A program made the position numbers and the translations under genes. The notes beneath the pieces are model-generated. The model was given only the letters and a program-made list of their open reading frames with translations. It searched no databases and had not been told where the DNA came from. Positions 32,683 through 41,356 of a stretch of 64,000 nucleotides of DNA are shown piece after piece. The stretch is from NCBI GenBank assembly GCA_965223855.1, contig CBDCXM010000009.1, positions 1,600,001 to 1,664,000 of the forward strand. Reading direction: 5' to 3'. Numbering within the stretch: position 1 is the stretch's first letter; each line of letters begins with the position of its first letter. Source of the DNA: Candidatus Multivoradales bacterium. Its GTDB lineage: Bacteria; Acidobacteriota; Thermoanaerobaculia; Multivoradales; JAHEKO01.

Positions 32683-32726
32683 CTACCCCGGAGGGTGGCT
32701 GCGACAGCCGTGATTGCGGGTACCGT
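32683..32726 (+). promoter_or_regulatory. Putative NarL-family activator box plus -10 element
   Basis: CTACCCCGGAGGGTGG (32683-32698), 22 nt, TACCGT; same layout as 36738-36781. Confidence 0.6.
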
Positions 32727-32775
32727 CCGACTGGATTCGTCGCTCGAACGTTCCTCGCAGCAAGGAGGCCTCGCC

Positions 32776-34713
32776 ATGGGTCAGACCGACGTCAGCGCCG
32801 CCTTCGATCCGCAGCAACTGCGGCTCTTCGGGCAGAAGGTGCTCCGCGATCTCCGGGCGCTCGAAGCGATGATCGAACAGTCTCTGTTCGAGACCGACCG
32901 CCGCCGGATCGGCGCCGAGCAGGAGATGTGCCTCGTGACCCCGGAGGGGTTCCCGGCGCTCGTCGGGCCGGCGATTCTCGAGGCGGTCGAGGATTCGCAC
33001 CTGACGACCGAGCTCGGCCGCTTCAATCTCGAGCTCAACCTCGACCCGCAGGAGTTCGAGGGGCATGCGCTGTCGGTGATGGAGGGGCAGCTGCTCGAGT
33101 TGCTGGCGATCGTGCGCCGTGGGGCGCGCGAGGAGGGGAGCGAGGTGTTGCTGACCGGGCTCCTGCCGACGCTCGAGAAACGCCACCTGACCCTCGAAGC
33201 GATGACCCCAGTACCGCGCTACCACGCCCTCAACGAGGCGATGCGCCGGCTCCGCGACGGTGAGGACTTCCAGTTCCACATCCGCGGCGAGGACGAGCTG
33301 CGCGTCTCGCACGACAATGTGATGCTCGAGGCGTGCACGACGAGCTTCCAGGTCCACTACCAGGTGGCGCCGGCGGAGTTCGCCCTCGCCTACAACACCG
33401 CTCAACTTCTGGCGGCGCCGGTGCTGGCGGTCGCCACGAACTCGCCGCTCCTCTTCGGCCATCGGTTGTGGAGGGAGACGAGGATCGCCGTCTTCGAGCA
33501 GTCGATCGACACGCGGCCGACGGCGTCGCACCACCGTCAGCAGGCGCGGCGCGTGAGCTTCGGCCGCGAGTGGGTGAAGGAGTCGGTGCTCGAGCTCTTC
33601 CGGGACGACATCTCGCGGTTCCCGGCCGTGCTGGCCGTCGAGACGGACGAGGACTCGCTGGCGCTCCTGGAGAAGGGGGAGATCCCGAAGCTGCGTGCGT
33701 TGCAGCTGCGCAACGGCACGGTCTATCGCTGGAACCGGCCCTGCTACGGCATCACCGACGGCAAACCCCACCTGCGGATCGAAAACCGGCTGCTGCCTTC
33801 CGGGCCCTCGGTGCGCGACGAGATGGCGAATGCCGCGCTGTGGCTGGGGTTGATGAGCGGCCTCCCGGCGCAGCTGGGGGATCCGTCGTCGCTGCTGCCG
33901 TTCGACGAAGCGCGGTCGAACTTCATCGCCGCCGCGCGCCATGGGCTCGACGCGCAGGTGAGCTGGCCGGGGCTCGGGCGGCTGCCCGTCGCGGTGCTCC
34001 TCGAGGAGACGTTGCTGCCGATCGCCCGCCAGGGGCTCGAGGAGGCAGGTGTCGCTCGTGACGACGTCGACGAGTATCTGTGGGTCATCGCCGGTCGGGT
34101 TCGCTCCGGTCGCACGGGCTCGCGCTGGATCCTGGAGGCTGCCGGCGGAGAGCGGGGGATGGCGAAGGCGTCGGCACTGGCCCACGTGGTGCGCGAGACG
34201 CTGGCGCGCCAGGCGGAAGGCCTGCCGGTGCACGAATGGTCGCCGGCACAGCCGCCGGCGGAGGTGGCGACCCCGGGGCCGGACCTCACCGTTTCTCATC
34301 TGATGACGGGGGATCTCTTCACCGTCGGCGAGGAGGAGGTCGTCGATGTGGTGGCCGCGGTGATGAACTGGCGGCACCTGCGCCGGATTCCGGTGGAGGA
34401 CGCCGCCGGGCGGCTCGTCGGGCTGGTGACCTATCGGGCGCTGCTGCGGGTGCTGAGCGACTCCCAGGCGCGCCGGGCGCTGCCGGTGGGGGAGATCATG
34501 ACGCGCGACCTGCACACGGCGTCGCCCGACACGACGGTGCTCGAGGCGCTCAAGACGATGCAGGAGCATCGGGTCGGCTGTCTGCCGATCGTCGACGGCG
34601 ACCGGCGGCTGGTCGGCATCCTGACCGAGCACGACCTGATCGGACTCGCGCGGCCGCTGCTCGAGCGCCACCTGACGGGTGACGAAGGCGGCCCGACCGA
34701 CCGGGCGGAGTAG
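32776..34713 (+). CDS. Glutamate-cysteine ligase (GCS2)-like protein fused to a C-terminal CBS pair
   Basis: AAGGAGG RBS; IGAEQE, TTELGRFNLELN, EACTTSFQVH, NSP, VYRWNRPCY, HLRIENR; two CBS repeats. Confidence 0.85.
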   Translation: MGQTDVSAAFDPQQLRLFGQKVLRDLRALEAMIEQSLFETDRRRIGAEQEMCLVTPEGFPALVGPAILEAVEDSHLTTELGRFNLELNLDPQEFEGHALSVMEGQLLELLAIVRRGAREEGSEVLLTGLLPTLEKRHLTLEAMTPVPRYHALNEAMRRLRDGEDFQFHIRGEDELRVSHDNVMLEACTTSFQVHYQVAPAEFALAYNTAQLLAAPVLAVATNSPLLFGHRLWRETRIAVFEQSIDTRPTASHHRQQARRVSFGREWVKESVLELFRDDISRFPAVLAVETDEDSLALLEKGEIPKLRALQLRNGTVYRWNRPCYGITDGKPHLRIENRLLPSGPSVRDEMANAALWLGLMSGLPAQLGDPSSLLPFDEARSNFIAAARHGLDAQVSWPGLGRLPVAVLLEETLLPIARQGLEEAGVARDDVDEYLWVIAGRVRSGRTGSRWILEAAGGERGMAKASALAHVVRETLARQAEGLPVHEWSPAQPPAEVATPGPDLTVSHLMTGDLFTVGEEEVVDVVAAVMNWRHLRRIPVEDAAGRLVGLVTYRALLRVLSDSQARRALPVGEIMTRDLHTASPDTTVLEALKTMQEHRVGCLPIVDGDRRLVGILTEHDLIGLARPLLERHLTGDEGGPTDRAE

Positions 34714-35370
34714 CTAGCTGTCCTCCTGCTCCTTCGGGCTGCCGTGGCCGGCCTGGAGGGCGAAGGCGACGACCTGCGCGCGGTTGTTGAGGTGCAGCTT
34801 CTCGAAGATGTGCCGGATGTGAAACTTGACCGTGTTCTCGCTCACACCGAGGTGCTCCGCGAGATCGCGATTGCTCGTCACGCCGTGGATCATCAGGTCG
34901 AGTACCTGGTCCTCGCGCTCGGTGAGCGCCTCCACCATCGGTGTGTCGAGGGTGCCGGCGCCGCTGAAGTCGCCACGGACCCGGCGCGCCATCGAGGGGG
35001 TGAGGAGCGGATGTCCCTCGGCGAGGCTGTCGAGGACGGCGAAGAAGTCCTCCGCCATCAGGTTCTTGAGCAGATAGCCGCGCGCACCGCTCTTGATGGC
35101 GGCGAACACCGAGGCGTCGTCGTCGCTCGCCGTCAGAACGACGACATGGGTCTCGGGGAGCTCGGCGCTGATCGCCCGGGTGGCGTCGAGTCCGCTCATG
35201 CGGGGCATCGTGAGGTCCATCAGCACGACCTCGGGCTTGAGCTCGAGGGTTAGATCGACCGCCTCACGTCCGTCGCTCGCCTCCGCGACCACCTCGTAGT
35301 CGTTCGCCTCCAGCAGGCTGCGCAGACTGGCGCGAAAGAGCGCGTGATCGTCTGCGATGAGGAGCCTCAC
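34714..35370 (-). CDS. NarL/LuxR-family response regulator
   Basis: IADDH, LMDLTMP, GYLLK; HTH LTERE...SENTVKFH. Confidence 0.93.
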   Translation of the reverse strand: MRLLIADDHALFRASLRSLLEANDYEVVAEASDGREAVDLTLELKPEVVLMDLTMPRMSGLDATRAISAELPETHVVVLTASDDDASVFAAIKSGARGYLLKNLMAEDFFAVLDSLAEGHPLLTPSMARRVRGDFSGAGTLDTPMVEALTEREDQVLDLMIHGVTSNRDLAEHLGVSENTVKFHIRHIFEKLHLNNRAQVVAFALQAGHGSPKEQEDS

Positions 35371-36704
35371 GGGTCGGTGCCTTGTCTCCTCGGCACCTCC
35401 GCAAGGATCTTCGTCCCCTCACCGGGTGCCGTGGTGAGCGTAAGGGTACCGCCAATTCCCTCGACGCGCTCGCGCATGATCGACAGGCCGTAGCCGTTGC
35501 CCTCGGCGGCGGTCTCGACCTCGAATCCGGTGCCGTCGTCCGAGACCGAGAGGGTGGTGCCCTCGCCGTTGGCGGCCATCCTGATCTCGACCCGGCCGGC
35601 AGCGGCGTGACGGCGGACGTTCGACAGCGCCTCCTGCAGCACCCGGTAGAGCTCCCACTTGGAGGTCCAGGGCAGCTGGACCGCCTGGCTCGAGACGGCG
35701 GTGACGATGCCGGTCTGCTCGGACCAGTCCTGCGCATAGGCGTCGACGGCTTCCTCGAGGTCGAGCTCGGAGTTGAGAGGATTTCGCAGTGCGAGGATGC
35801 TCTCCCGGACCTCGTCGTACGCCGTCCGCGCCGACTCGCCGAGCCCCTCCAGATGGCCAAGGACGGCGTCGGTGTCGTTCTTGCGCAGCAGTCTCAGAGC
35901 CGCCTGCGAGCGGACGCTGACCGAGGCGAGCACCTGCGCCAGGCCGTCGTGCATCTCGCGTGCGATGCGCAGAGCCTCGTTGGAAACAGCGGCGGAGCGC
36001 AGTTGCTCGTGGTGGGAGGAGGTATCGACCGCGAGCCCGGCGATCCTGGCGAAACGGACGAGCGATTCTTCGTCGAACTGGGTGAACGCCGGCGCCGTCT
36101 CCTTCTCGGCCAGGTAGAGATTGCCGCGAAAGCCGTTACGGGACGCGATCGGGACGGCGAGAAGGGATTTCATCGGCGGGTGCTTGGCGGGGAAGCCGGC
36201 GGAGCGGGGGTCGCGGGCGAGGTCGTCGAGGCGCAACCGCTCGCCCCTTAGCAGTGGAACCGCCAGCAGGCCGCGACCGGTGGGCGGAGCCCCGATCTGC
36301 TCGGCGAGCTCGGGCTCGATCCCGGAGGTGATGAACTCGACGATGGTCCCCTCGTCGTCGACGACGGACAGTGCTCCGTAGCGCGCGTCCATGAGTTCAC
36401 GAGCCTGTTCGACGATTCGCTCCAGCAGTTGCCCCAGGTCGAGGTCGCCGTGGATCTCGAGACCCGCCTCGTAGAGTGCATAGAGTTCGTCGTTGTGGCG
36501 TTCCAACCTCTCTCGAAGCAGCACCTGCTCCCGGATTGCGCCGATGCCGAGCGCCACTACGCAGGCGACGAAGAGCAGCTTCACTGCGACCGTCGTCCAA
36601 CCGGGCGCGGCGGGGGGGAGGAGCAGATACAGCGCTACCAGCATCACGATGAGCGCGAGCGCTACCGTCCAGTGCCACTTGTACCGCCGGGCGGTGGGTT
36701 GCAT
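35367..36704 (-). CDS. Sensor histidine kinase with two TMs, DosS-like GAF domain and HisKA_3
   Basis: GFPAKHPPMKSLLAVPI (GAF), IAREMHDGLAQ, QEALSNVRRH, DDGTGF, GYGLSIMRER; start placed at ATG 36704. Confidence 0.9.
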   Translation of the reverse strand: MQPTARRYKWHWTVALALIVMLVALYLLLPPAAPGWTTVAVKLLFVACVVALGIGAIREQVLLRERLERHNDELYALYEAGLEIHGDLDLGQLLERIVEQARELMDARYGALSVVDDEGTIVEFITSGIEPELAEQIGAPPTGRGLLAVPLLRGERLRLDDLARDPRSAGFPAKHPPMKSLLAVPIASRNGFRGNLYLAEKETAPAFTQFDEESLVRFARIAGLAVDTSSHHEQLRSAAVSNEALRIAREMHDGLAQVLASVSVRSQAALRLLRKNDTDAVLGHLEGLGESARTAYDEVRESILALRNPLNSELDLEEAVDAYAQDWSEQTGIVTAVSSQAVQLPWTSKWELYRVLQEALSNVRRHAAAGRVEIRMAANGEGTTLSVSDDGTGFEVETAAEGNGYGLSIMRERVEGIGGTLTLTTAPGEGTKILAEVPRRQGTDP

Positions 36705-36737
36705 GCGCGCATTGTAGGGAAGTCGGCTCGAAGCCGC

Positions 36738-36781
36738 CCACCCGATCGGGTGGTGCGTTGCGTCGGGCGGTGTCTCAGAAT
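36738..36781 (+). promoter_or_regulatory. Putative NarL-family activator box plus -10 element
   Basis: Perfect palindrome CCACCCGATCGGGTGG (36738-36753), 22 nt, CAGAAT. Confidence 0.65.
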
Positions 36782-36789
36782 CGAAGGGC

Positions 36790-38052
36790 ATGTACGCAAG
36801 ATGCGCCTTCGCGGCGCTGACCGTCGTTGCCGCCCTGGCGGCGCCGGTGTCTGCCGGCCGGGAGCCGGCGGCTCGAAACGCGGCCGACGGAGAGGACAGC
36901 AGCGCCTCGACGGAGGGTTCCGGTCTCCTGTCGGCCCTGCGGGCGGGCGAAACCAGCCTGGGCCTGCGCTACCGCCACGAGACCGTCTCGGTCGATTCTC
37001 CCGTGCGGGACGCGCACGCCTCTACCCTTCGCACGACGCTCGGGTGGAAGTCGGGCTCCTACTACGGCTGGCGGGTGTTTCTGGAGGCCGAGGACGTTTC
37101 GGTTCTCGGCGATCGCGACGGCTATCGCAACGCCGGGGCCGGGGCGTTGTCGAACGGCGTCGACGACCGGGCGGTGGTGGCCGATCCCGCTCTCACCGAG
37201 CTCAACCAGGCGGGGCTCCGCTGGCAGGGAAGACGGGGCGAACTCGTGGTCGGTCGGCAGGAGATCAATCTCGCCGACCAGAGGCTGGTCGGCGCCGTCG
37301 GCTGGCGGCAGAACCATCAGTCGTTCGAGGCCGTTCTCTTCCGCTACAGAACGGCGAACGGAATCGGCTTCGAGGCTGCACAGCTCGAGAGTGTGCAGCG
37401 GATCTTCGGCGACGCCCGCGACCTCTCCGGGCAGCTGCTGCAAGTGGACTGGGGGCACGGCCCGGTGAAGCTGAGGGCCTACGTGCTCGAGGTCGACTTC
37501 GAGCGCTTCGCCGGACTTTCGACCCGCACGGCGGGTGCCGAAGGCCGTTGGACGACCGCTCTGACCTCCCGCCGATCCCTCGAGGCCGAGATCGAGTACG
37601 CCGTGCAGGAAGACGCCGGCGCAAACCCAGACAACGTCGAAGCCGACTACCTCCACTGGAGCGTCGGGCTGTCCGGGGAGCCCCTTTCGTTGTGGGTCGG
37701 AGGCGAAGAGCTGTCGGGCGCCCCCGACGAAGGGCGCTTCGCGACCCCGCTGGCCACGCTGCACAAGTTCAACGGCTGGGCCGATCAGTTCCTGCAGACG
37801 CCCGAGAACGGCCTCCGCGACCTCCATGTAGGTCTCGGGGCGCAGCGAGGTGCCTGGCTGGGCGAACTGAGGGCCCACCGGTTCGACGCCGCCAGCGGCG
37901 GCGCCGAGTACGGCGACGAGTTGGACCTGCTGGTGCGGTGGAAGAGCGGCTGGGGCCAGACCTTCGCCCTCAAGATGGCCGACTACGGCGCGGACGGTCA
38001 CTCGGTCGATACGACGAAGTGGATGCTTTGGACGGAGGTGCGCTTTCCATGA
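36790..38052 (+). CDS. Alginate-export-family outer-membrane beta-barrel protein
   Basis: Signal peptide; LRYRHE, VVADP..TELNQA, GRQEINL.DQRLVGAVGWRQN, FATPLATLHKFNGWAD; terminal beta strand. Confidence 0.85.
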   Translation: MYARCAFAALTVVAALAAPVSAGREPAARNAADGEDSSASTEGSGLLSALRAGETSLGLRYRHETVSVDSPVRDAHASTLRTTLGWKSGSYYGWRVFLEAEDVSVLGDRDGYRNAGAGALSNGVDDRAVVADPALTELNQAGLRWQGRRGELVVGRQEINLADQRLVGAVGWRQNHQSFEAVLFRYRTANGIGFEAAQLESVQRIFGDARDLSGQLLQVDWGHGPVKLRAYVLEVDFERFAGLSTRTAGAEGRWTTALTSRRSLEAEIEYAVQEDAGANPDNVEADYLHWSVGLSGEPLSLWVGGEELSGAPDEGRFATPLATLHKFNGWADQFLQTPENGLRDLHVGLGAQRGAWLGELRAHRFDAASGGAEYGDELDLLVRWKSGWGQTFALKMADYGADGHSVDTTKWMLWTEVRFP

Positions 38053-38660
38053 GTGACGCGTCGAGGGATTCCAAGGCCAGCACCACCACGGGCGGCGACC
38101 CGAGGGAAACGTCGTCACCTTCCGCAGCGCGGGCCCAGCCGCCGAGCGAGGATCGCCGGGACTTCCTGGCCAGGGCGTCGAAGGTCGCCATGGCCACAGG
38201 CCTCGCGGCGGGGTACGGTGCCCTCGGAGTCGTCGCGGCTCGCTATCTCTATCCAGCCGGGTCGACCGACGAGGGGTGGGTGTTCGCCGCCGAGACGGCG
38301 AAGATGCGCCCCGGCGATTCGAGGCTCTTTCGGGGCCCGTCCGGGGAGACGATCAACATCACCCGGACGGCGGCCGAGGAGTCGGCGGAGAGTTTCATCG
38401 CGCTCTCGAGCACCTGTCCGCACCTGGGATGCCAGGTGCACTGGGAGCCGCAGAACGACCGCTACTTCTGCCCCTGCCACAACGGGACCTTCGATGCCGA
38501 GGGGAAGGGGACCGGCGGTCCGCCGGGAGATGCGGGTCAGACACTCCCGAAGTACCCGCTGAGAGTGGAGAAGGGGCTGCTGTTCGTCTCCGTGCCTTCC
38601 TCGCAGCTGGCGCGCGGTGAGCGACTCGTCGAGATCGAGCGGAGGAGACGGCGATCCTGA
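38049..38660 (+). CDS. Rieske 2Fe-2S protein (QcrA/PetC-like) with Tat anchor
   Basis: DRRDFL twin-arginine motif, CPHLGC, CPCHNG. Confidence 0.92.
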   Translation: MSDASRDSKASTTTGGDPRETSSPSAARAQPPSEDRRDFLARASKVAMATGLAAGYGALGVVAARYLYPAGSTDEGWVFAAETAKMRPGDSRLFRGPSGETINITRTAAEESAESFIALSSTCPHLGCQVHWEPQNDRYFCPCHNGTFDAEGKGTGGPPGDAGQTLPKYPLRVEKGLLFVSVPSSQLARGERLVEIERRRRRS

Positions 38661-39706
38661 GCGGAGCACAGAGCTGGCTCAAAGAGCGGATCCCCGTGTC
38701 GGGCTCGCAGATGCGCGAGCTCACGAACGAGCCGGTGCCCCACCACCTGAAGCGCTGGTGGTTCGCCCTCGGTGGCACACCGGCCTACCTCTTCGTGGTG
38801 CAGATCTTCACCGGGATTCTCCTCGCCTTCTACTACGAGCCGTCGTCGCAGTCGGCCTACGAATCGGTGCGCTACATCACCGAGGAGGCGGCGTTCGGCT
38901 GGTATCTGCGCAGCGTCCACAAGTGGGCGGCCACGCTGATGATCGCCGCCGTGGTGCTGCATCAGATGCGGGTCTATTTCACCGGCGCCTACCGCCGCCC
39001 GCGGGAGCTCAACTGGGTCGTCGGGATGTGTCTGCTGCTGACGACCCTGATGACCGGTTTCACCGGTTACAGCCTGGTCTACGAACAGCTCTCGTTCTGG
39101 GGTGCGACGGTCGGCGCCAACATCACCGACACCGTGCCGGTCGTCGGCGGATTCCTGAAGACGATGCTCCTGGCGGGCGACAGCTACAACGAGCACACGT
39201 TGTCCCGCTTCTTCGTGCTCCACGCCGCCGTCTTGCCCGTGACGATCATCCTGCTGGTGGTCGTGCACGTGATCTTCATTCGCCTCCAGGGGGTGACGGA
39301 GTTCAAGTTCAAGGACGAGGAGCGACTGCCGGCCAGGTCGTTCAACTTCTTCCCGGAGCATCTGATGACGGAGCTCACGATCGGGCTGGTCCTGATGGTG
39401 ATTCTGTCGGCACTCGCCACGATCTTTCCAGCCGTCATGGGGCCGCCCGCGGATCCGCTGACCACTCCCGAAGTCATCAAGCCCGAGTGGTTCTTCTATG
39501 TGGCGTTCCGCTGGTTGAAGCTCTTTACTGGGACCGCGGCGGTGCTGAGCATGGGGTTGATCGTCGGCACGATGTTCGCCTGGCCGTGGATCGACGGTTG
39601 GATCCGGCGACGGACGAGGTTCAAGGAGGCGAGCGTCTGGATCGGCATCGTCGGGGTGCTCACGATCGTCGCGCTCACCGTCTGGGAGGCAGTGGTCAAA
39701 CACTGA
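38657..39706 (+). CDS. Cytochrome b (b6 plus subunit IV fused type) of a Rieske/cytb complex
   Basis: LRSVH...VLH and FFVLH-x14-H heme ligands, TGYSL, WGATV, PADPLTTP, IKPEWF; start probably upstream of GTG 38696. Confidence 0.92.
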   Translation: MSGAQSWLKERIPVSGSQMRELTNEPVPHHLKRWWFALGGTPAYLFVVQIFTGILLAFYYEPSSQSAYESVRYITEEAAFGWYLRSVHKWAATLMIAAVVLHQMRVYFTGAYRRPRELNWVVGMCLLLTTLMTGFTGYSLVYEQLSFWGATVGANITDTVPVVGGFLKTMLLAGDSYNEHTLSRFFVLHAAVLPVTIILLVVVHVIFIRLQGVTEFKFKDEERLPARSFNFFPEHLMTELTIGLVLMVILSALATIFPAVMGPPADPLTTPEVIKPEWFFYVAFRWLKLFTGTAAVLSMGLIVGTMFAWPWIDGWIRRRTRFKEASVWIGIVGVLTIVALTVWEAVVKH

Positions 39707-39715
39707 GGAGCTGTC

Positions 39716-41356
39716 ATGACACTCGAGACCAAACGTTGGATCATCGCCGCGCTCGGCTTTCTCTTCCTGCTCTCTCTCGTGCTGGTGCAGTGGATGGAGA
39801 CGGCGCGCAAGGCGGAGGAAGCGGGCCTGGCCAAGGCTCACATCGCGGTGCCCGACAGTTCGAAGGAATGCGTCAAGTGTCACGACCAGAGCACGCCGGG
39901 GATCATCGGCCACTGGGAGGGGAGTACCCATGCGGAGAAGGGTGTCGGCTGTGTCGAATGCCATCGGGCCGAGTCCTTCGATGCGGACTCGTTCGAGCAC
40001 TACGGCGAGGTGATCGCCACCGTCGTCACGCCGCGCGACTGCGCCGGTTGTCATCTGAAAGAGGCGGAGCAGTTCGCCTCCAGCCACCACGCCAAGGGCG
40101 GCAACATCCTCGCTTCGCTCGACAACTTCCTCGCCGAGACGGTCGAAGGCTCGCGCGAGCCGTTCAATCCCCACAGCCCTACGCCCGGGATGCAGGTGAA
40201 CGCCGTCAACGGTCTGGCGAGCGCGTTTTCCGGCTGCCAGCAGTGCCATGGGTCAAAAGTGGCGCTGCTGGGAGAGGACGGTCGGCAGATCACCGTCGAT
40301 GACCTGCAGCCCGACGAGAACGGGCGGCCGACCAACGTCGTCGCGGTGGAGGCGATCGCCCGCGACGAGAACGGCAAGCCGAGCTTCCATCCCGGTACCT
40401 GGCCCAACACGGGCATCGGGCGACTCAATCTCGACGGATCACGAGGATCGTGCTCGGCCTGTCACAGCCGTCACGATTTCTCGCCGCGCCGGGCACGTCA
40501 GCCGGAGAACTGCGGCAAATGCCACCTCGGCCCCGACCATCCTCAGAAAGAGATCTTCGAGGAGTCGAAGCACGGCGTCGCCTACCGCGACCTCAAGGAC
40601 GACCTCAACCTCGACGGCGAGGACTGGGTGCTGGGGGTGGACTACTCCGCCGCCCCGACCTGCGCCACGTGCCACATGTCCGGCCATCTGCGCAACGGCG
40701 GCGAGGTGACCCACGACCCGGGCGAGCGCATCTCATGGACGAACCGGCCTCCGGTGTCGCTCGTCATGGACACCGACGAGAACCATGCGATCGTCAAGGA
40801 GACCGATCCCGACAAGAGGCGTGAGCTCATCGCCGACAGCTGGGAGGACAAGCGCAATCGGATGAAGCAGGTGTGCTCGCACTGCCACACCCCCGACTAC
40901 GTCAACGCCTTCTACCGGCAGTACGACGACCTGGTCATCCTCTACAACGAGAAGTTCGCCAAGCCGGGACAGCAGATCATGGCGGCGTTGGCGGCGGCCG
41001 GCTTGCGATCGCCCACCCAGTTCGACGAAGAGATCGAGTGGACCTGGTTCTACCTGTGGCACCACGAGGGGCGGCGGGCGCGTCACGGCGCGTCGATGAT
41101 GGCGCCCGACTACACGCACTGGCACGGCATGTACGAGGTCGCGGAGCGGTTCTACATGGAGCTCATCCCACAGGCGCGCGAGATCACTCACGAGGCGAGG
41201 GCGGACGGGCACGCGGCTGCGGCCGCCGAGGTGGACGGAGTGATCGCCGCCATCCTTGCCCGGCCCGAGCACGAATGGTTCGAGGAGGGGGCCGTGGCCG
41301 AGACCGAGCGGGTGCGAGAGGAGATGCGACGGCGCTACGGTCAGGGCGGCGGTTAG
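39716..41356 (+). CDS. Membrane-anchored octaheme cytochrome c, hydroxylamine oxidoreductase (HAO) family
   Basis: Eight CxxCH motifs (CVKCH, CVECH, CAGCH, CQQCH, CSACH, CGKCH, CATCH, CSHCH), GPDH, ESKHG, PDYTHWHG; GAGGAG RBS. Confidence 0.9.
   Translation: MTLETKRWIIAALGFLFLLSLVLVQWMETARKAEEAGLAKAHIAVPDSSKECVKCHDQSTPGIIGHWEGSTHAEKGVGCVECHRAESFDADSFEHYGEVIATVVTPRDCAGCHLKEAEQFASSHHAKGGNILASLDNFLAETVEGSREPFNPHSPTPGMQVNAVNGLASAFSGCQQCHGSKVALLGEDGRQITVDDLQPDENGRPTNVVAVEAIARDENGKPSFHPGTWPNTGIGRLNLDGSRGSCSACHSRHDFSPRRARQPENCGKCHLGPDHPQKEIFEESKHGVAYRDLKDDLNLDGEDWVLGVDYSAAPTCATCHMSGHLRNGGEVTHDPGERISWTNRPPVSLVMDTDENHAIVKETDPDKRRELIADSWEDKRNRMKQVCSHCHTPDYVNAFYRQYDDLVILYNEKFAKPGQQIMAALAAAGLRSPTQFDEEIEWTWFYLWHHEGRRARHGASMMAPDYTHWHGMYEVAERFYMELIPQAREITHEARADGHAAAAAEVDGVIAAILARPEHEWFEEGAVAETERVREEMRRRYGQGGG

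Follow-up and report, generated by a model that had tools for sequence, protein, structure and literature searches.

A conserved and widespread Rieske/cytochrome b module with a membrane-anchored octaheme cytochrome of the HAO family, a probable quinol-fed nitrite reductase

Introduction

Complexes of a Rieske protein and cytochrome b whose genes cluster with that of a protein resembling hydroxylamine oxidoreductase (HAO) have been described in anammox bacteria (PMC12954380, PMC12485887; here and below, papers are cited from their accessible parts). In one of these, R/b-3 (Kuste4569-4574), a b6f-type Rieske/cytochrome b pair is accompanied by Kuste4574, an HAO-like protein that lacks the cross-linking tyrosine and is a proposed nitrite reducer; the activity of R/b-3 is unproven and AlphaFold3 could not place Kuste4574 (PMC12954380, PMC12485887). 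In Caldithrix abyssi, nap, Rieske/cytochrome b and εHao genes are clustered, and reduction of nitrite to ammonium has been proposed, with several electron routes (PMC5317091). A Rieske/cytochrome b complex that feeds nitrite reduction by an HAO-like enzyme has thus been proposed in print before, and R/b-3 and Caldithrix are partial precedents for the locus described here, which lies at positions 36790-41356 of a 64,000-nucleotide stretch of DNA from a Candidatus Multivoradales bacterium of the Acidobacteriota (assembly GCA_965223855.1, contig CBDCXM010000009.1, positions 1,600,001 to 1,664,000 of the forward strand; hereafter, the window) and encodes a Rieske protein, a cytochrome b and a membrane-anchored octaheme cytochrome c.

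Members of the HAO family without the cross-linking tyrosine are reductases in vitro: four εHAOs act on nitrite and hydroxylamine as reductases, with hardly any oxidation of hydroxylamine, and the Kuenenia enzyme HAOr reduces nitrite to nitric oxide (NO) (PMC8042395). In the classification of Soares et al., HAO and IhOCC form clade 1 of the octaheme families; heme 4 is the five-coordinate catalytic heme of the HAO family, and the term octaheme nitrite reductase is applied to IhOCC (PMC9250108).

An earlier interpretation of this locus, made from the sequence alone (the original prediction), saw four tightly coupled genes for a porin and a Rieske/cytochrome b complex in which an octaheme HAO-family enzyme replaces cytochrome c1, pointed to the anammox clusters that are indeed on record, and proposed a quinol-fed reductase of nitrite, NO or hydroxylamine, or of a sulfur oxyanion. 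This reading is largely right. Our correction is that the core has three genes, that the porin is optional and that the commonest partner of the core is NapAB.

A three-gene unit conserved across phyla

The unit comprises, all on the + strand, genes for a Tat-exported Rieske [2Fe-2S] subunit of b6f type (38049..38660; Pfam Rieske PF00355), a cytochrome b in which b6 and subunit IV are fused (38657..39706, with the canonical-start open reading frame (ORF) at 38696-39706; 336-349 amino acids (aa), PF00033 and PF00032) and a membrane-anchored octaheme cytochrome c of the HAO/IhOCC family (39716..41356; 546 aa, PF13447). Relatives of the octaheme protein are abundant. Among 8000 candidates scored in a protein search, at least 7993 had E <=1e-5, and the best 120 of these are 74-100% identical over 99-100% of the length, under database names as various as 'multiheme c-type cytochrome', 'hydroxylamine oxidoreductase', 'hydroxylamine dehydrogenase' and 'hypothetical'; an exhaustive search of cluster representatives gave 1942 clusters at E <=1e-3, of which 272 reach E <=1e-30. 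Among 585 pattern-matched stretches listed from species-representative genomes, at least 575 encode a relative, and the best 80 of these, at 69-79% identity, make up the set of loci compared below. By their record titles they belong to Acidobacteriota (including Thermoanaerobaculia and Vicinamibacterales), Gemmatimonadota, Planctomycetota (Phycisphaeraceae, Planctomycetaceae, Gemmatales) and Chloroflexota (Anaerolineales, Ca. Epilinea), with further titles naming Binatia, Krumholzibacteriota, Eiseniibacteriota, Myxococcota-type 'Deltaproteobacteria', UBP7 and one Chlamydiae metagenome-assembled genome (MAG).

Cytochrome b is encoded directly upstream of the octaheme gene in all 73 loci that have at least 1100 bp of upstream sequence, and the Rieske protein further upstream in 70 of the 71 that have at least 1900 bp, the lone exception holding 100 N. 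The median gap between the cytochrome b and octaheme genes is 29 bp, and all three genes are nearly full-length in 68 of the 80 loci. Because essentially all the related loci examined share this gene order, the arrangement is not a matter of chance, and the survey of neighbourhoods across genomes bears out the predicted linkage as far as these three genes are concerned. The conserved unit is Rieske, cytochrome b and octaheme; the porin, which had been counted as its fourth member, occurs in 25 of the 80 loci and lies directly upstream on the same strand in eight. Over 46 loci, mean column identity is 80% for cytochrome b and about 72% for the octaheme protein. In a quick tree, sequences group largely by phylum (17 label changes against a shuffled mean of 46), with Acidobacteriota in several places and the window beside two Acidobacteria MAGs. 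As a respiratory module, then, this is real, well conserved and very widespread; it is its function that has to be inferred.

One contig in the set (L111) is titled Candidatus Kuenenia sp.; it is 5.8 kb long with 56% G+C, and its octaheme protein nests among Planctomycetaceae in the tree. This contig is probably mis-binned and is no evidence for the module in Kuenenia.

Family and active site of the octaheme cytochrome

The octaheme protein contains exactly eight CxxCH motifs, which account for all 16 of its cysteines; variants of the CxxxCH or CxxxxCH kind are absent, and there is a single hydrophobic helix, at residues 9-27. All eight heme motifs are invariant among 55 diverse relatives, including motif 4 (C174-QQ-C177-H178, 40235..40249, + strand), which aligns with the fourth CxxCH of Nitrosomonas HAO (NeHAO). 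The protein matches Pfam PF13447 at 83.4 bits (cut-off 21.9). In a search of solved structures with the single sequence, IhOCC (4qo5) came first (E 1.6e-43), followed by the Kuenenia reductive HAO, HAOr (6h5l, 3.2e-23), and NeHAO (~1e-17). A family profile, A1, built from the 55 relatives sharpened this ranking to 8.4e-107 for 4qo5, over nearly its full length, 9e-55 for NeHAO and 6.7e-51 for 6h5l, with Kuenenia HOX (4n4j) and HDH (6hif) weaker and ONR and NrfA marginal; HAOr is thus a weaker match than IhOCC by either route. An AlphaFold model made from A1 (pLDDT 92.1, pTM 0.86) begins with a helix at residues 3-35 and keeps the whole HAO-type fold, including the C-terminal helical bundle. 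Foldseek aligned it best with 4qo5 (E 2.5e-21, TM 0.65/0.67, identity 24%) and gave probability 1.00 to 4qo5 and then 6h5l, 1fgj, 4n4j, 6hif and 6t5e, while ONR, NrfA, MccA and c554 fell far below. Membership of the NrfA/ONR group finds no support, there being no PF02335 among the Pfam matches of the octaheme protein and its fold matches to ONR and NrfA being weak (E >=6e-3, TM <=0.30). Motif count, Pfam, profile search and predicted fold agree with the earlier description of an anchored eight-heme cytochrome of the HAO family, and by sequence and model the protein is a member of the HAO/IhOCC clade.

The active site can be read from the profile alignment. The catalytic pair of the Nitrosomonas enzyme is, in the numbering that we take to be the conventional one, Asp267-His268, and an identical Asp-His stands at chain positions 267-268 of 4fas_A and 1fgj_A opposite D274-H275 of the window protein, within the GPDH segment that follows heme motif 6 (40535..40540, + strand). 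This match with the conventional numbering fixes the register of the alignment. D274 and H275 are invariant in all 81 orthologues, in keeping with the earlier suggestion that GPDH holds the catalytic pair. Chain position 467 of 4fas_A, which we take to be the tyrosine cross-linked to the catalytic heme of an adjacent subunit, aligns with His468 of the window protein, in the segment PDYTHWHG (residues 464-471; 41105..41128, + strand) to which the original prediction had drawn attention. The tyrosine of an oxidative P460 enzyme is absent from this column, which holds His in 79 and Gln in 2 of the 81 orthologues, in a sequence alignment through a loop with a length difference of one residue. A tyrosine does stand two residues before it, at Tyr466, in 80 of the 81. 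An alignment of NeHAO Tyr334 with Arg344 was tentative, also lies in a loop and is not relied upon.

These columns bear on whether the enzyme might be oxidative, taking electrons from hydroxylamine or hydrazine and passing them through the complex to the quinone pool or to other acceptors. Many members are named hydroxylamine oxidoreductase or dehydrogenase in the databases, and the conserved Tyr466 is only two residues from the cross-link column. That column is itself free of tyrosine throughout the family, however; electron flow from a periplasmic cytochrome to quinone through Rieske and cytochrome b would be uphill on bioenergetic grounds; and the linkage to nitrate reductase described below fits a reductive chain. 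Tyr-less HAOs, furthermore, are without appreciable oxidative activity (PMC8042395). We find an oxidative role scarcely credible.

The octaheme cytochrome as a proposed subunit of the complex

The N-terminal transmembrane anchor (residues 9-27 by hydropathy, helix 3-35 in the model; 39740..39796, + strand) is among the conserved parts of the protein: K6, F17, L18, S20, L21, V24, Q25, E28, R31, E35 and G37 are each kept in 78-81 of the 81 orthologues, conservation that goes far beyond the needs of a cleaved signal peptide. A predicted complex of the octaheme protein with cytochrome b scored 0.78, and the best of three controls 0.00. The mark applied to this score is reached by 58 of 80 solved complexes and by 2 of 110 mismatched pairs, counts that apply only approximately here, the prediction having been made with our own paired family alignments. 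Runs agreed in at least 92% of contacts and partner pLDDT was at least 84. The confidently predicted interface consists entirely of octaheme residues 1-37 packed against cytochrome b residues 80-96 (the helix B region), 244-250, 265-268 and 311-333 (the last helix). No complex of an HAO-like protein with cytochrome b is among the solved structures matched by the octaheme sequence, profile or model, and we know of none that the prediction could have copied. The modelling, one of the checks by which the original prediction could be judged, supports, but does not show, a physical attachment of the octaheme protein to cytochrome b.

The ORF and Pfam survey of the window found no gene for cytochrome c1 or f in or beside the operon. 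This absence, the place of the octaheme gene right after cytochrome b in every informative locus of the set, and an N-terminal helix that is both conserved and predicted to pack on cytochrome b lead us to propose that the octaheme protein is the catalytic subunit of the complex and its stand-in for cytochrome c1/f, much as had been predicted.

The Rieske protein and cytochrome b

The two partners have the sequence features of Rieske/cytochrome b complexes of bc1/b6f type. The Rieske protein has an RRDFL twin-arginine (Tat) motif, one membrane helix, and both cluster motifs, CPHLGC and CPCHNGTF. Its closest solved relatives are b6f iron-sulfur subunits (E 1.6e-11 for a cyanobacterial one), against which the Kuenenia Rieske structures 9rk4 (E 1.8e-7) and 9rk3 (6.7e-6) are weaker matches. 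CPCHNGTF aligns with CPCHGSQY of cyanobacterial b6f and lacks its Ser and Tyr. These two residues raise the potential in high-potential Rieske proteins, and their loss goes with low-potential Rieske proteins of the menaquinol type. Since they are absent here, the cluster is probably of low potential, which fits a menaquinol-driven chain into a multiheme reductase.

Cytochrome b matches Pfam Cytochrome_B at 182.8 bits, Cytochrom_B_C, and the NCBIfam models of cytochrome b6 and b6f subunit IV. In 46 orthologues, both His pairs are invariant at b6-type spacing (H75/H89 and H176/H191), as is P263-E264-W265 of the PEWY-type Qo-site motif, here PEWFFY. The N-terminal stretch, where b6 anchors heme ci, contains no cysteine.

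Linked genes and other possible roles

Genes accompanying the core were identified by clustering the genes of the 80 loci after filtering on G+C content at third codon positions (GC3), followed by hidden Markov model (HMM) searches; clusters of raw six-frame ORFs, which included many antisense pseudo-families without a Pfam match, were replaced by the GC3-filtered sets. The commonest neighbour is NapA (789 aa), immediately downstream on the same strand in 39 of the 80 loci, with 955 bits to NF010055 (cut-off 904) and 918 to TIGR01706 (cut-off 930). A NapB-like cytochrome (PF03892, with an extra c7-type motif) often follows napA, for example at L054:11616-12191 and L087:10960-11556. An ORF of about 191 aa lies downstream of napA in 13 loci; it has no Pfam or NCBIfam match and could act in electron transfer or as a Nap accessory that has so far escaped recognition. 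The conserved neighbours tested included none of a NapC-type family.

Such linkage could mean that the octaheme protein is only an electron wire, and the complex a Qcr-type quinol dehydrogenase for NapAB or for other periplasmic reductases. The position of napA and the napB-like gene directly downstream, with no NapC-type family among the neighbours tested, speaks for such a device. Rieske/cytochrome b complexes are, moreover, reportedly donors to Nap in Campylobacterota, a finding said to be that of Garg et al. in 2018. Against a wire speak the genome of the window, which has the module and no NapA; the Asp-His pair and its surrounding segment, invariant in all 81 orthologues and needless for pure electron transfer; and the retention, in the model, of the whole enzyme fold with its C-terminal helices. 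We regard a mere wire as distinctly unlikely.

The porin is a recurrent accessory of the core, of which NapAB is the commonest partner. In the window it is a 420-aa outer-membrane beta-barrel of the Alginate_exp family (36790..38052, + strand) with a signal-peptide-like N-terminus, matching PF13372 at 29.5 bits (cut-off 25.2); a sequence search of solved structures gave no match, and the porin copy in L102 reaches 191.6 bits to Alginate_exp. In the 25 loci with such porins, eight are upstream on the same strand, nine upstream and divergent, seven downstream, and one is an overlapping call; the divergent porins are mostly from Gemmatimonadota, and those downstream mostly come after napAB.

A porin so linked, in 25 of the 80 loci, could also be part of an outward route for electrons or substrate, and the substrate might then be a sulfur or selenium oxyanion, or a metal, in place of a nitrogen compound. 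The best NCBIfam match of cytochrome b is indeed ExtP, from a selenite/tellurite reduction operon, although at 224 bits it is below the cut-off of 290, and related octaheme families reduce sulfite or tetrathionate (PMC9250108). The octaheme protein is nevertheless of the HAO/IhOCC clade and not a relative of MccA or OTR (Foldseek gave E >=1 for 4rkm and no OTR match), and its catalytic heme stands at the HAO position. Adjacent NapA in relatives, and NarGH in the window's genome, point to nitrate and nitrite, and no recurrent gene for an outer-membrane or extracellular multiheme cytochrome was found beside the porin among the neighbour clusters of the 80 loci. A substrate without nitrogen is accordingly very improbable. 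The original prediction had left the choice among nitrite, NO, hydroxylamine and a sulfur oxyanion; its nitrogen oxides have gained indirect support, from napA in 39 of 80 loci and from a genome with NarGH and no other recognisable nitrite reductase, while the sulfur oxyanion has gained nothing.

The module in Acidobacteriota and in the genome of the window

In a sample of 401 genomes of the window's phylum, 114 have an HAO-family match at E <=1e-20 (a tally that includes one unpublished genome, G024). Full-length close copies of the octaheme gene were found in 21 genomes, including that of the window, and fragments or a decayed copy in three more; of the 20 loci outside the window, 17 have cytochrome b upstream. 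Relatives only 45-55% identical, in L026, L027 and L029, also directly follow cytochrome b, with napA after them in L029, which suggests that the partnership is older than the tight clade of 70-80% identity. Among the 21 carriers, napA is adjacent in nine, and NarG is over the cut-off in six others, including the window's genome.

The genome of the window is 92.47% complete. It encodes NarG (1522 bits) and NarH (660 bits), and in it there was no match to PF02335 (NrfA) or PF02239 (NirS), no NirK, NirB or clade-II NosZ over the cut-offs, and no NapA. TIGR04246 gave a match to the CuA domain only, and the nos_propeller profile, which did not match its controls, is uninformative on NosZ. No NO reductase (NOR) was recognised: the three heme-copper oxidases comprise two of A-type and one that is cbb3-like. 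Going by these profile searches, the module appears to be the only candidate respiratory nitrite reductase in this genome. A gene for a 428-aa c-type cytochrome with matches to SoxX-like and heme-binding domains precedes narG/narH (G000 contig C3, L112:1-6600). The genome also has a second, conventional Rieske/cytochrome b pair (G000 contig C9:22602-23730; cytochrome b 40% identical), with A-type oxidase genes in its vicinity (C9:4025-5452 and C9:52699-54027); given this ordinary pair elsewhere, the module would be an extra, dedicated complex.

In this sample NrfA and NirK seldom accompany the module. NrfA is found in two of the 21 carriers (G093, G248) and in 101 of the 380 other genomes of the phylum, 103 of 401 overall (with one unpublished genome, G152, in the tally). 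Few genomes, 6 of 401, have NirK over the cut-off, and none of them is an intact carrier. In genus g7, of the window's order, one genome (G186) has NirK and a decayed octaheme gene (L025, with an internal TAG, its middle missing and no cytochrome b within 1.5 kb), another (G196) has NirK and no module, and two without NirK have intact copies (G381 two, G296 one), a pattern that looks like the swapping of alternative nitrite reductases.

It is here that the product of the reaction comes into question. The same complex might carry an octaheme enzyme that forms NO, as Kuenenia HAOr does, so that the module would serve partial denitrification and not ammonification. HAOr is the second-best Foldseek match (6h5l) and the only Tyr-less HAO with a product measured by membrane-inlet mass spectrometry (MIMS), which was NO, with no ammonium or hydroxylamine (PMC8042395). 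Kuste4574 of R/b-3 has also been proposed to make NO (PMC12954380, PMC12485887), and studies of Planctomycetota MAGs report hao together with norB and napAB (PMC10732223, PMC11266412). On the other hand, neither NOR nor NosZ was recognised in the window's genome, leaving no respiratory sink for NO; IhOCC is closer than HAOr by profile (E 8.4e-107 against 6.7e-51); and the εHAOs take both nitrite and hydroxylamine as substrates (PMC8042395). We consider NO unlikely as the product in general but the main alternative, which could well apply to carriers with norB (PMC10732223).

Layout of the locus

The genes for porin, Rieske, cytochrome b and octaheme are four + strand ORFs packed within 36790-41356, and their tight spacing is confirmed; what the original prediction described as seen here holds in all its details. 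The Rieske ATG at 38049 overlaps the stop of the porin gene as ATGA, and the octaheme gene starts 9 bp past the cytochrome b stop, preceded by GAGGAG. The first canonical start of cytochrome b is a GTG at 38696. In 30 orthologous cytochrome b ORFs, however, NEPVP comes after exactly 23 residues that show the pattern W-x-x-[ED]-R-[LI]-P, and this 23-residue register is also present in the window, upstream of 38696, where it begins at a CTG at 38657 that overlaps the Rieske stop (CTGA). On this comparison the true start is probably the CTG, and since the register beginning there overlaps the Rieske stop, all four genes may be translationally coupled.

Upstream, on the - strand, lie a NarL/LuxR-type response regulator (34714..35370; Pfam Response_reg and GerE) and a membrane histidine kinase with a GAF sensor (35367..36791; Pfam GAF_2, HisKA_3, HATPase_c; two hydrophobic helices), a two-component pair divergent from the operon. 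The kinase ORF as listed, which runs away from the operon, starts a single base from the ATG of the porin gene. Its real start is probably an internal Met about 29 codons in (MQPTARRYKW...), which would leave an intergenic space of about 85 bp for a shared divergent promoter region (window 36704-36791). A scan of the locus for promoters and terminators gave only chance-level intragenic matches. A similar kinase/regulator pair adjoins the module in 13 of the 80 loci, for example L044, L059 and L064. Downstream, an alpha/beta-hydrolase gene converges on the operon.

The two-component genes are adjoined by a gene for a 672-aa protein (window 32695-34713) with a region of glutamate-cysteine-ligase family 2 and two CBS domains. 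A homologue, 52% identical, is encoded at L059:2891-4813, immediately before the Rieske gene and in the same orientation, at the site that the porin occupies in the window, and fragments with CBS domains also occur near the module in L055, L071 and L077.

Discussion

Taken together, the conservation, the family assignment and the analogy with studied relatives lead us to a reading that we hold to be probable: Rieske protein, cytochrome b and octaheme cytochrome would form a three-subunit, quinol-fed and Q-cycle-coupled reductase of nitrite (an N-oxide reductase), probably forming ammonium. Menaquinol would be oxidised at the Qo site of the b6-type cytochrome b, one electron passing through the two b hemes in a Q-cycle and the other through the low-potential Rieske cluster into the heme chain of the octaheme protein, which would be held on cytochrome b by its N-terminal helix. 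Nitrite would be reduced in the periplasm at the open heme 4, with its Asp-His pair and no Tyr cross-link. The product in the window's organism would most likely be ammonium, perhaps formed through bound NO and hydroxylamine as intermediates; since no sink for NO was recognised in the genome, ammonium is the more economical product. Nitrite would be supplied by NarGH in the window's organism, and, in roughly half of the module's relatives, by the NapAB encoded directly downstream. Nitrate or nitrite may enter through the porin, and expression is probably governed by the neighbouring GAF kinase and NarL-type regulator.

What would set this scheme apart is that energy would be conserved by the oxidation of quinol through a Q-cycle and not through NrfH or NapC. 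The span from menaquinol to nitrite/ammonium is about 0.4 V, and quinol oxidation of the NrfH type is not electrogenic as a Q-cycle is. A span of this size would suffice to drive a Q-cycle with one charge moved per electron.

Several observations sit uneasily with this proposal. A shift in the loop may bring the conserved Tyr466 to the neighbouring heme. HAO-family enzymes are trimers. HAOr, for its part, is described as α3β3 (PMC8042395) and Rieske/cytochrome b complexes as dimers (PMC12954380), a mismatch in stoichiometry. The nearest relatives studied biochemically differ in their product, which is ammonium for εHao and NO for HAOr. Within the phylum sample, L016 (G081), L020 (G361) and L022 (G083), at 62-73% identity (62% in L020 and L022), have no adjacent cytochrome b, and such copies could represent a form that is soluble or wired in another way. 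Neither an adjacent napA nor NarG was found in six of the 21 carriers, a count made for napA on 1.5-kb flanks, with napA elsewhere not searched. The absence of a gene from a 92%-complete genome is no proof that the organism lacks it, and the co-occurrence counts, which come from related and therefore non-independent genomes, are suggestive and not statistical. In L016 the octaheme match starts only at residue 31, and upstream of it is a divergent porin gene.

A broader claim, to which we give rather less than even credence, is that the module is an uncounted major electrogenic and ammonium-forming nitrite reductase in Acidobacteriota, Gemmatimonadota, non-anammox Planctomycetota, Anaerolineae and other soil and sediment phyla. 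Were it true, many environmental 'hao' hits would mark nitrate ammonification coupled to a Q-cycle, and not nitrification or anammox; ammonifiers would be undercounted by surveys that rely on nrfA and onr, and the markers nirK and nirS would miss the complex too. A global survey of ammonifiers did screen for nrfA and onr only, with IhOCC as a negative control (PMC10716430). The nitrite step would itself be proton-motive, unlike that of NrfH-dependent ammonification, so that estimates of energy yield would change, and a trimeric HAO fold and a dimeric bc-type core would be reconciled in a way not yet seen. Small, conserved and common, the module would also be a tractable model for how multiheme enzymes plug into bc-type complexes, and for the role of the HAO-like subunit in anammox R/b-3.

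The original prediction knew of no characterisation of the four-gene form, and we likewise found no description of a three-subunit form, with an anchored HAO-like enzyme replacing c1/f, in the full-text literature searched, several key papers and supplements being out of reach. A prior listing is possible in the supplements of PMC10732223 (Table 1; OFTM MAGs are among our loci), PMC12758564 (Tables S8-S10, Fig. S8) and PMC9250108. In the accessible text of MAG studies, 'hao', 'R/b complex genes' and 'napAB' are listed next to one another for some MAGs of our locus set, and not as one module (PMC10732223, PMC11266412).

Comparison with known systems

The quinol-fed periplasmic multiheme nitrite ammonifiers NrfHA and NrfABCD, and ONR, are functional analogues of the proposed enzyme from a different family, and NrfH and NrfD oxidise quinol without a Q-cycle. 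By sequence and by fold, the closest solved relative of the octaheme protein is IhOCC (Igni_0955 of Ignicoccus hospitalis, 4qo5), which has eight hemes in the HAO arrangement and, like it, no tyrosine at the aligned cross-link position. IhOCC is archaeal, is 24% identical in the Foldseek alignment and has no partnership with Rieske and cytochrome b reported in the accessible parts of the sources (PMC4429474, PMC9250108), whereas the octaheme protein of the window has a conserved N-terminal anchor and an operon with Rieske and cytochrome b.

The quinol-oxidising half resembles b6f and bc1 complexes in its Tat-exported Rieske protein, in the four His of cytochrome b at b6-type spacing, in the PEW motif of the Qo site and in C-terminal helices like those of subunit IV. 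It differs from them in having no cytochrome f or c1 and no Cys for heme ci, and in that the enzyme in their place has eight hemes and is anchored at its N-terminus, not its C-terminus. In Caldithrix, εHao, compared here by description only, is described as a soluble periplasmic protein that is served by NapM or ACIII and is not a replacement for c1 (PMC5317091).

A further parallel to the module is anammox R/b-3, in which b6 and subunit IV are split, a separate hexaheme cytochrome is anchored in the membrane, an NAD(P) oxidoreductase is present and the HAO-like protein is an additional subunit (PMC12954380). The module of the window has neither an NAD(P) oxidoreductase domain nor a separate hexaheme cytochrome in its operon and consists of three proteins, in which cytochrome b is fused and the octaheme cytochrome itself carries the anchor.

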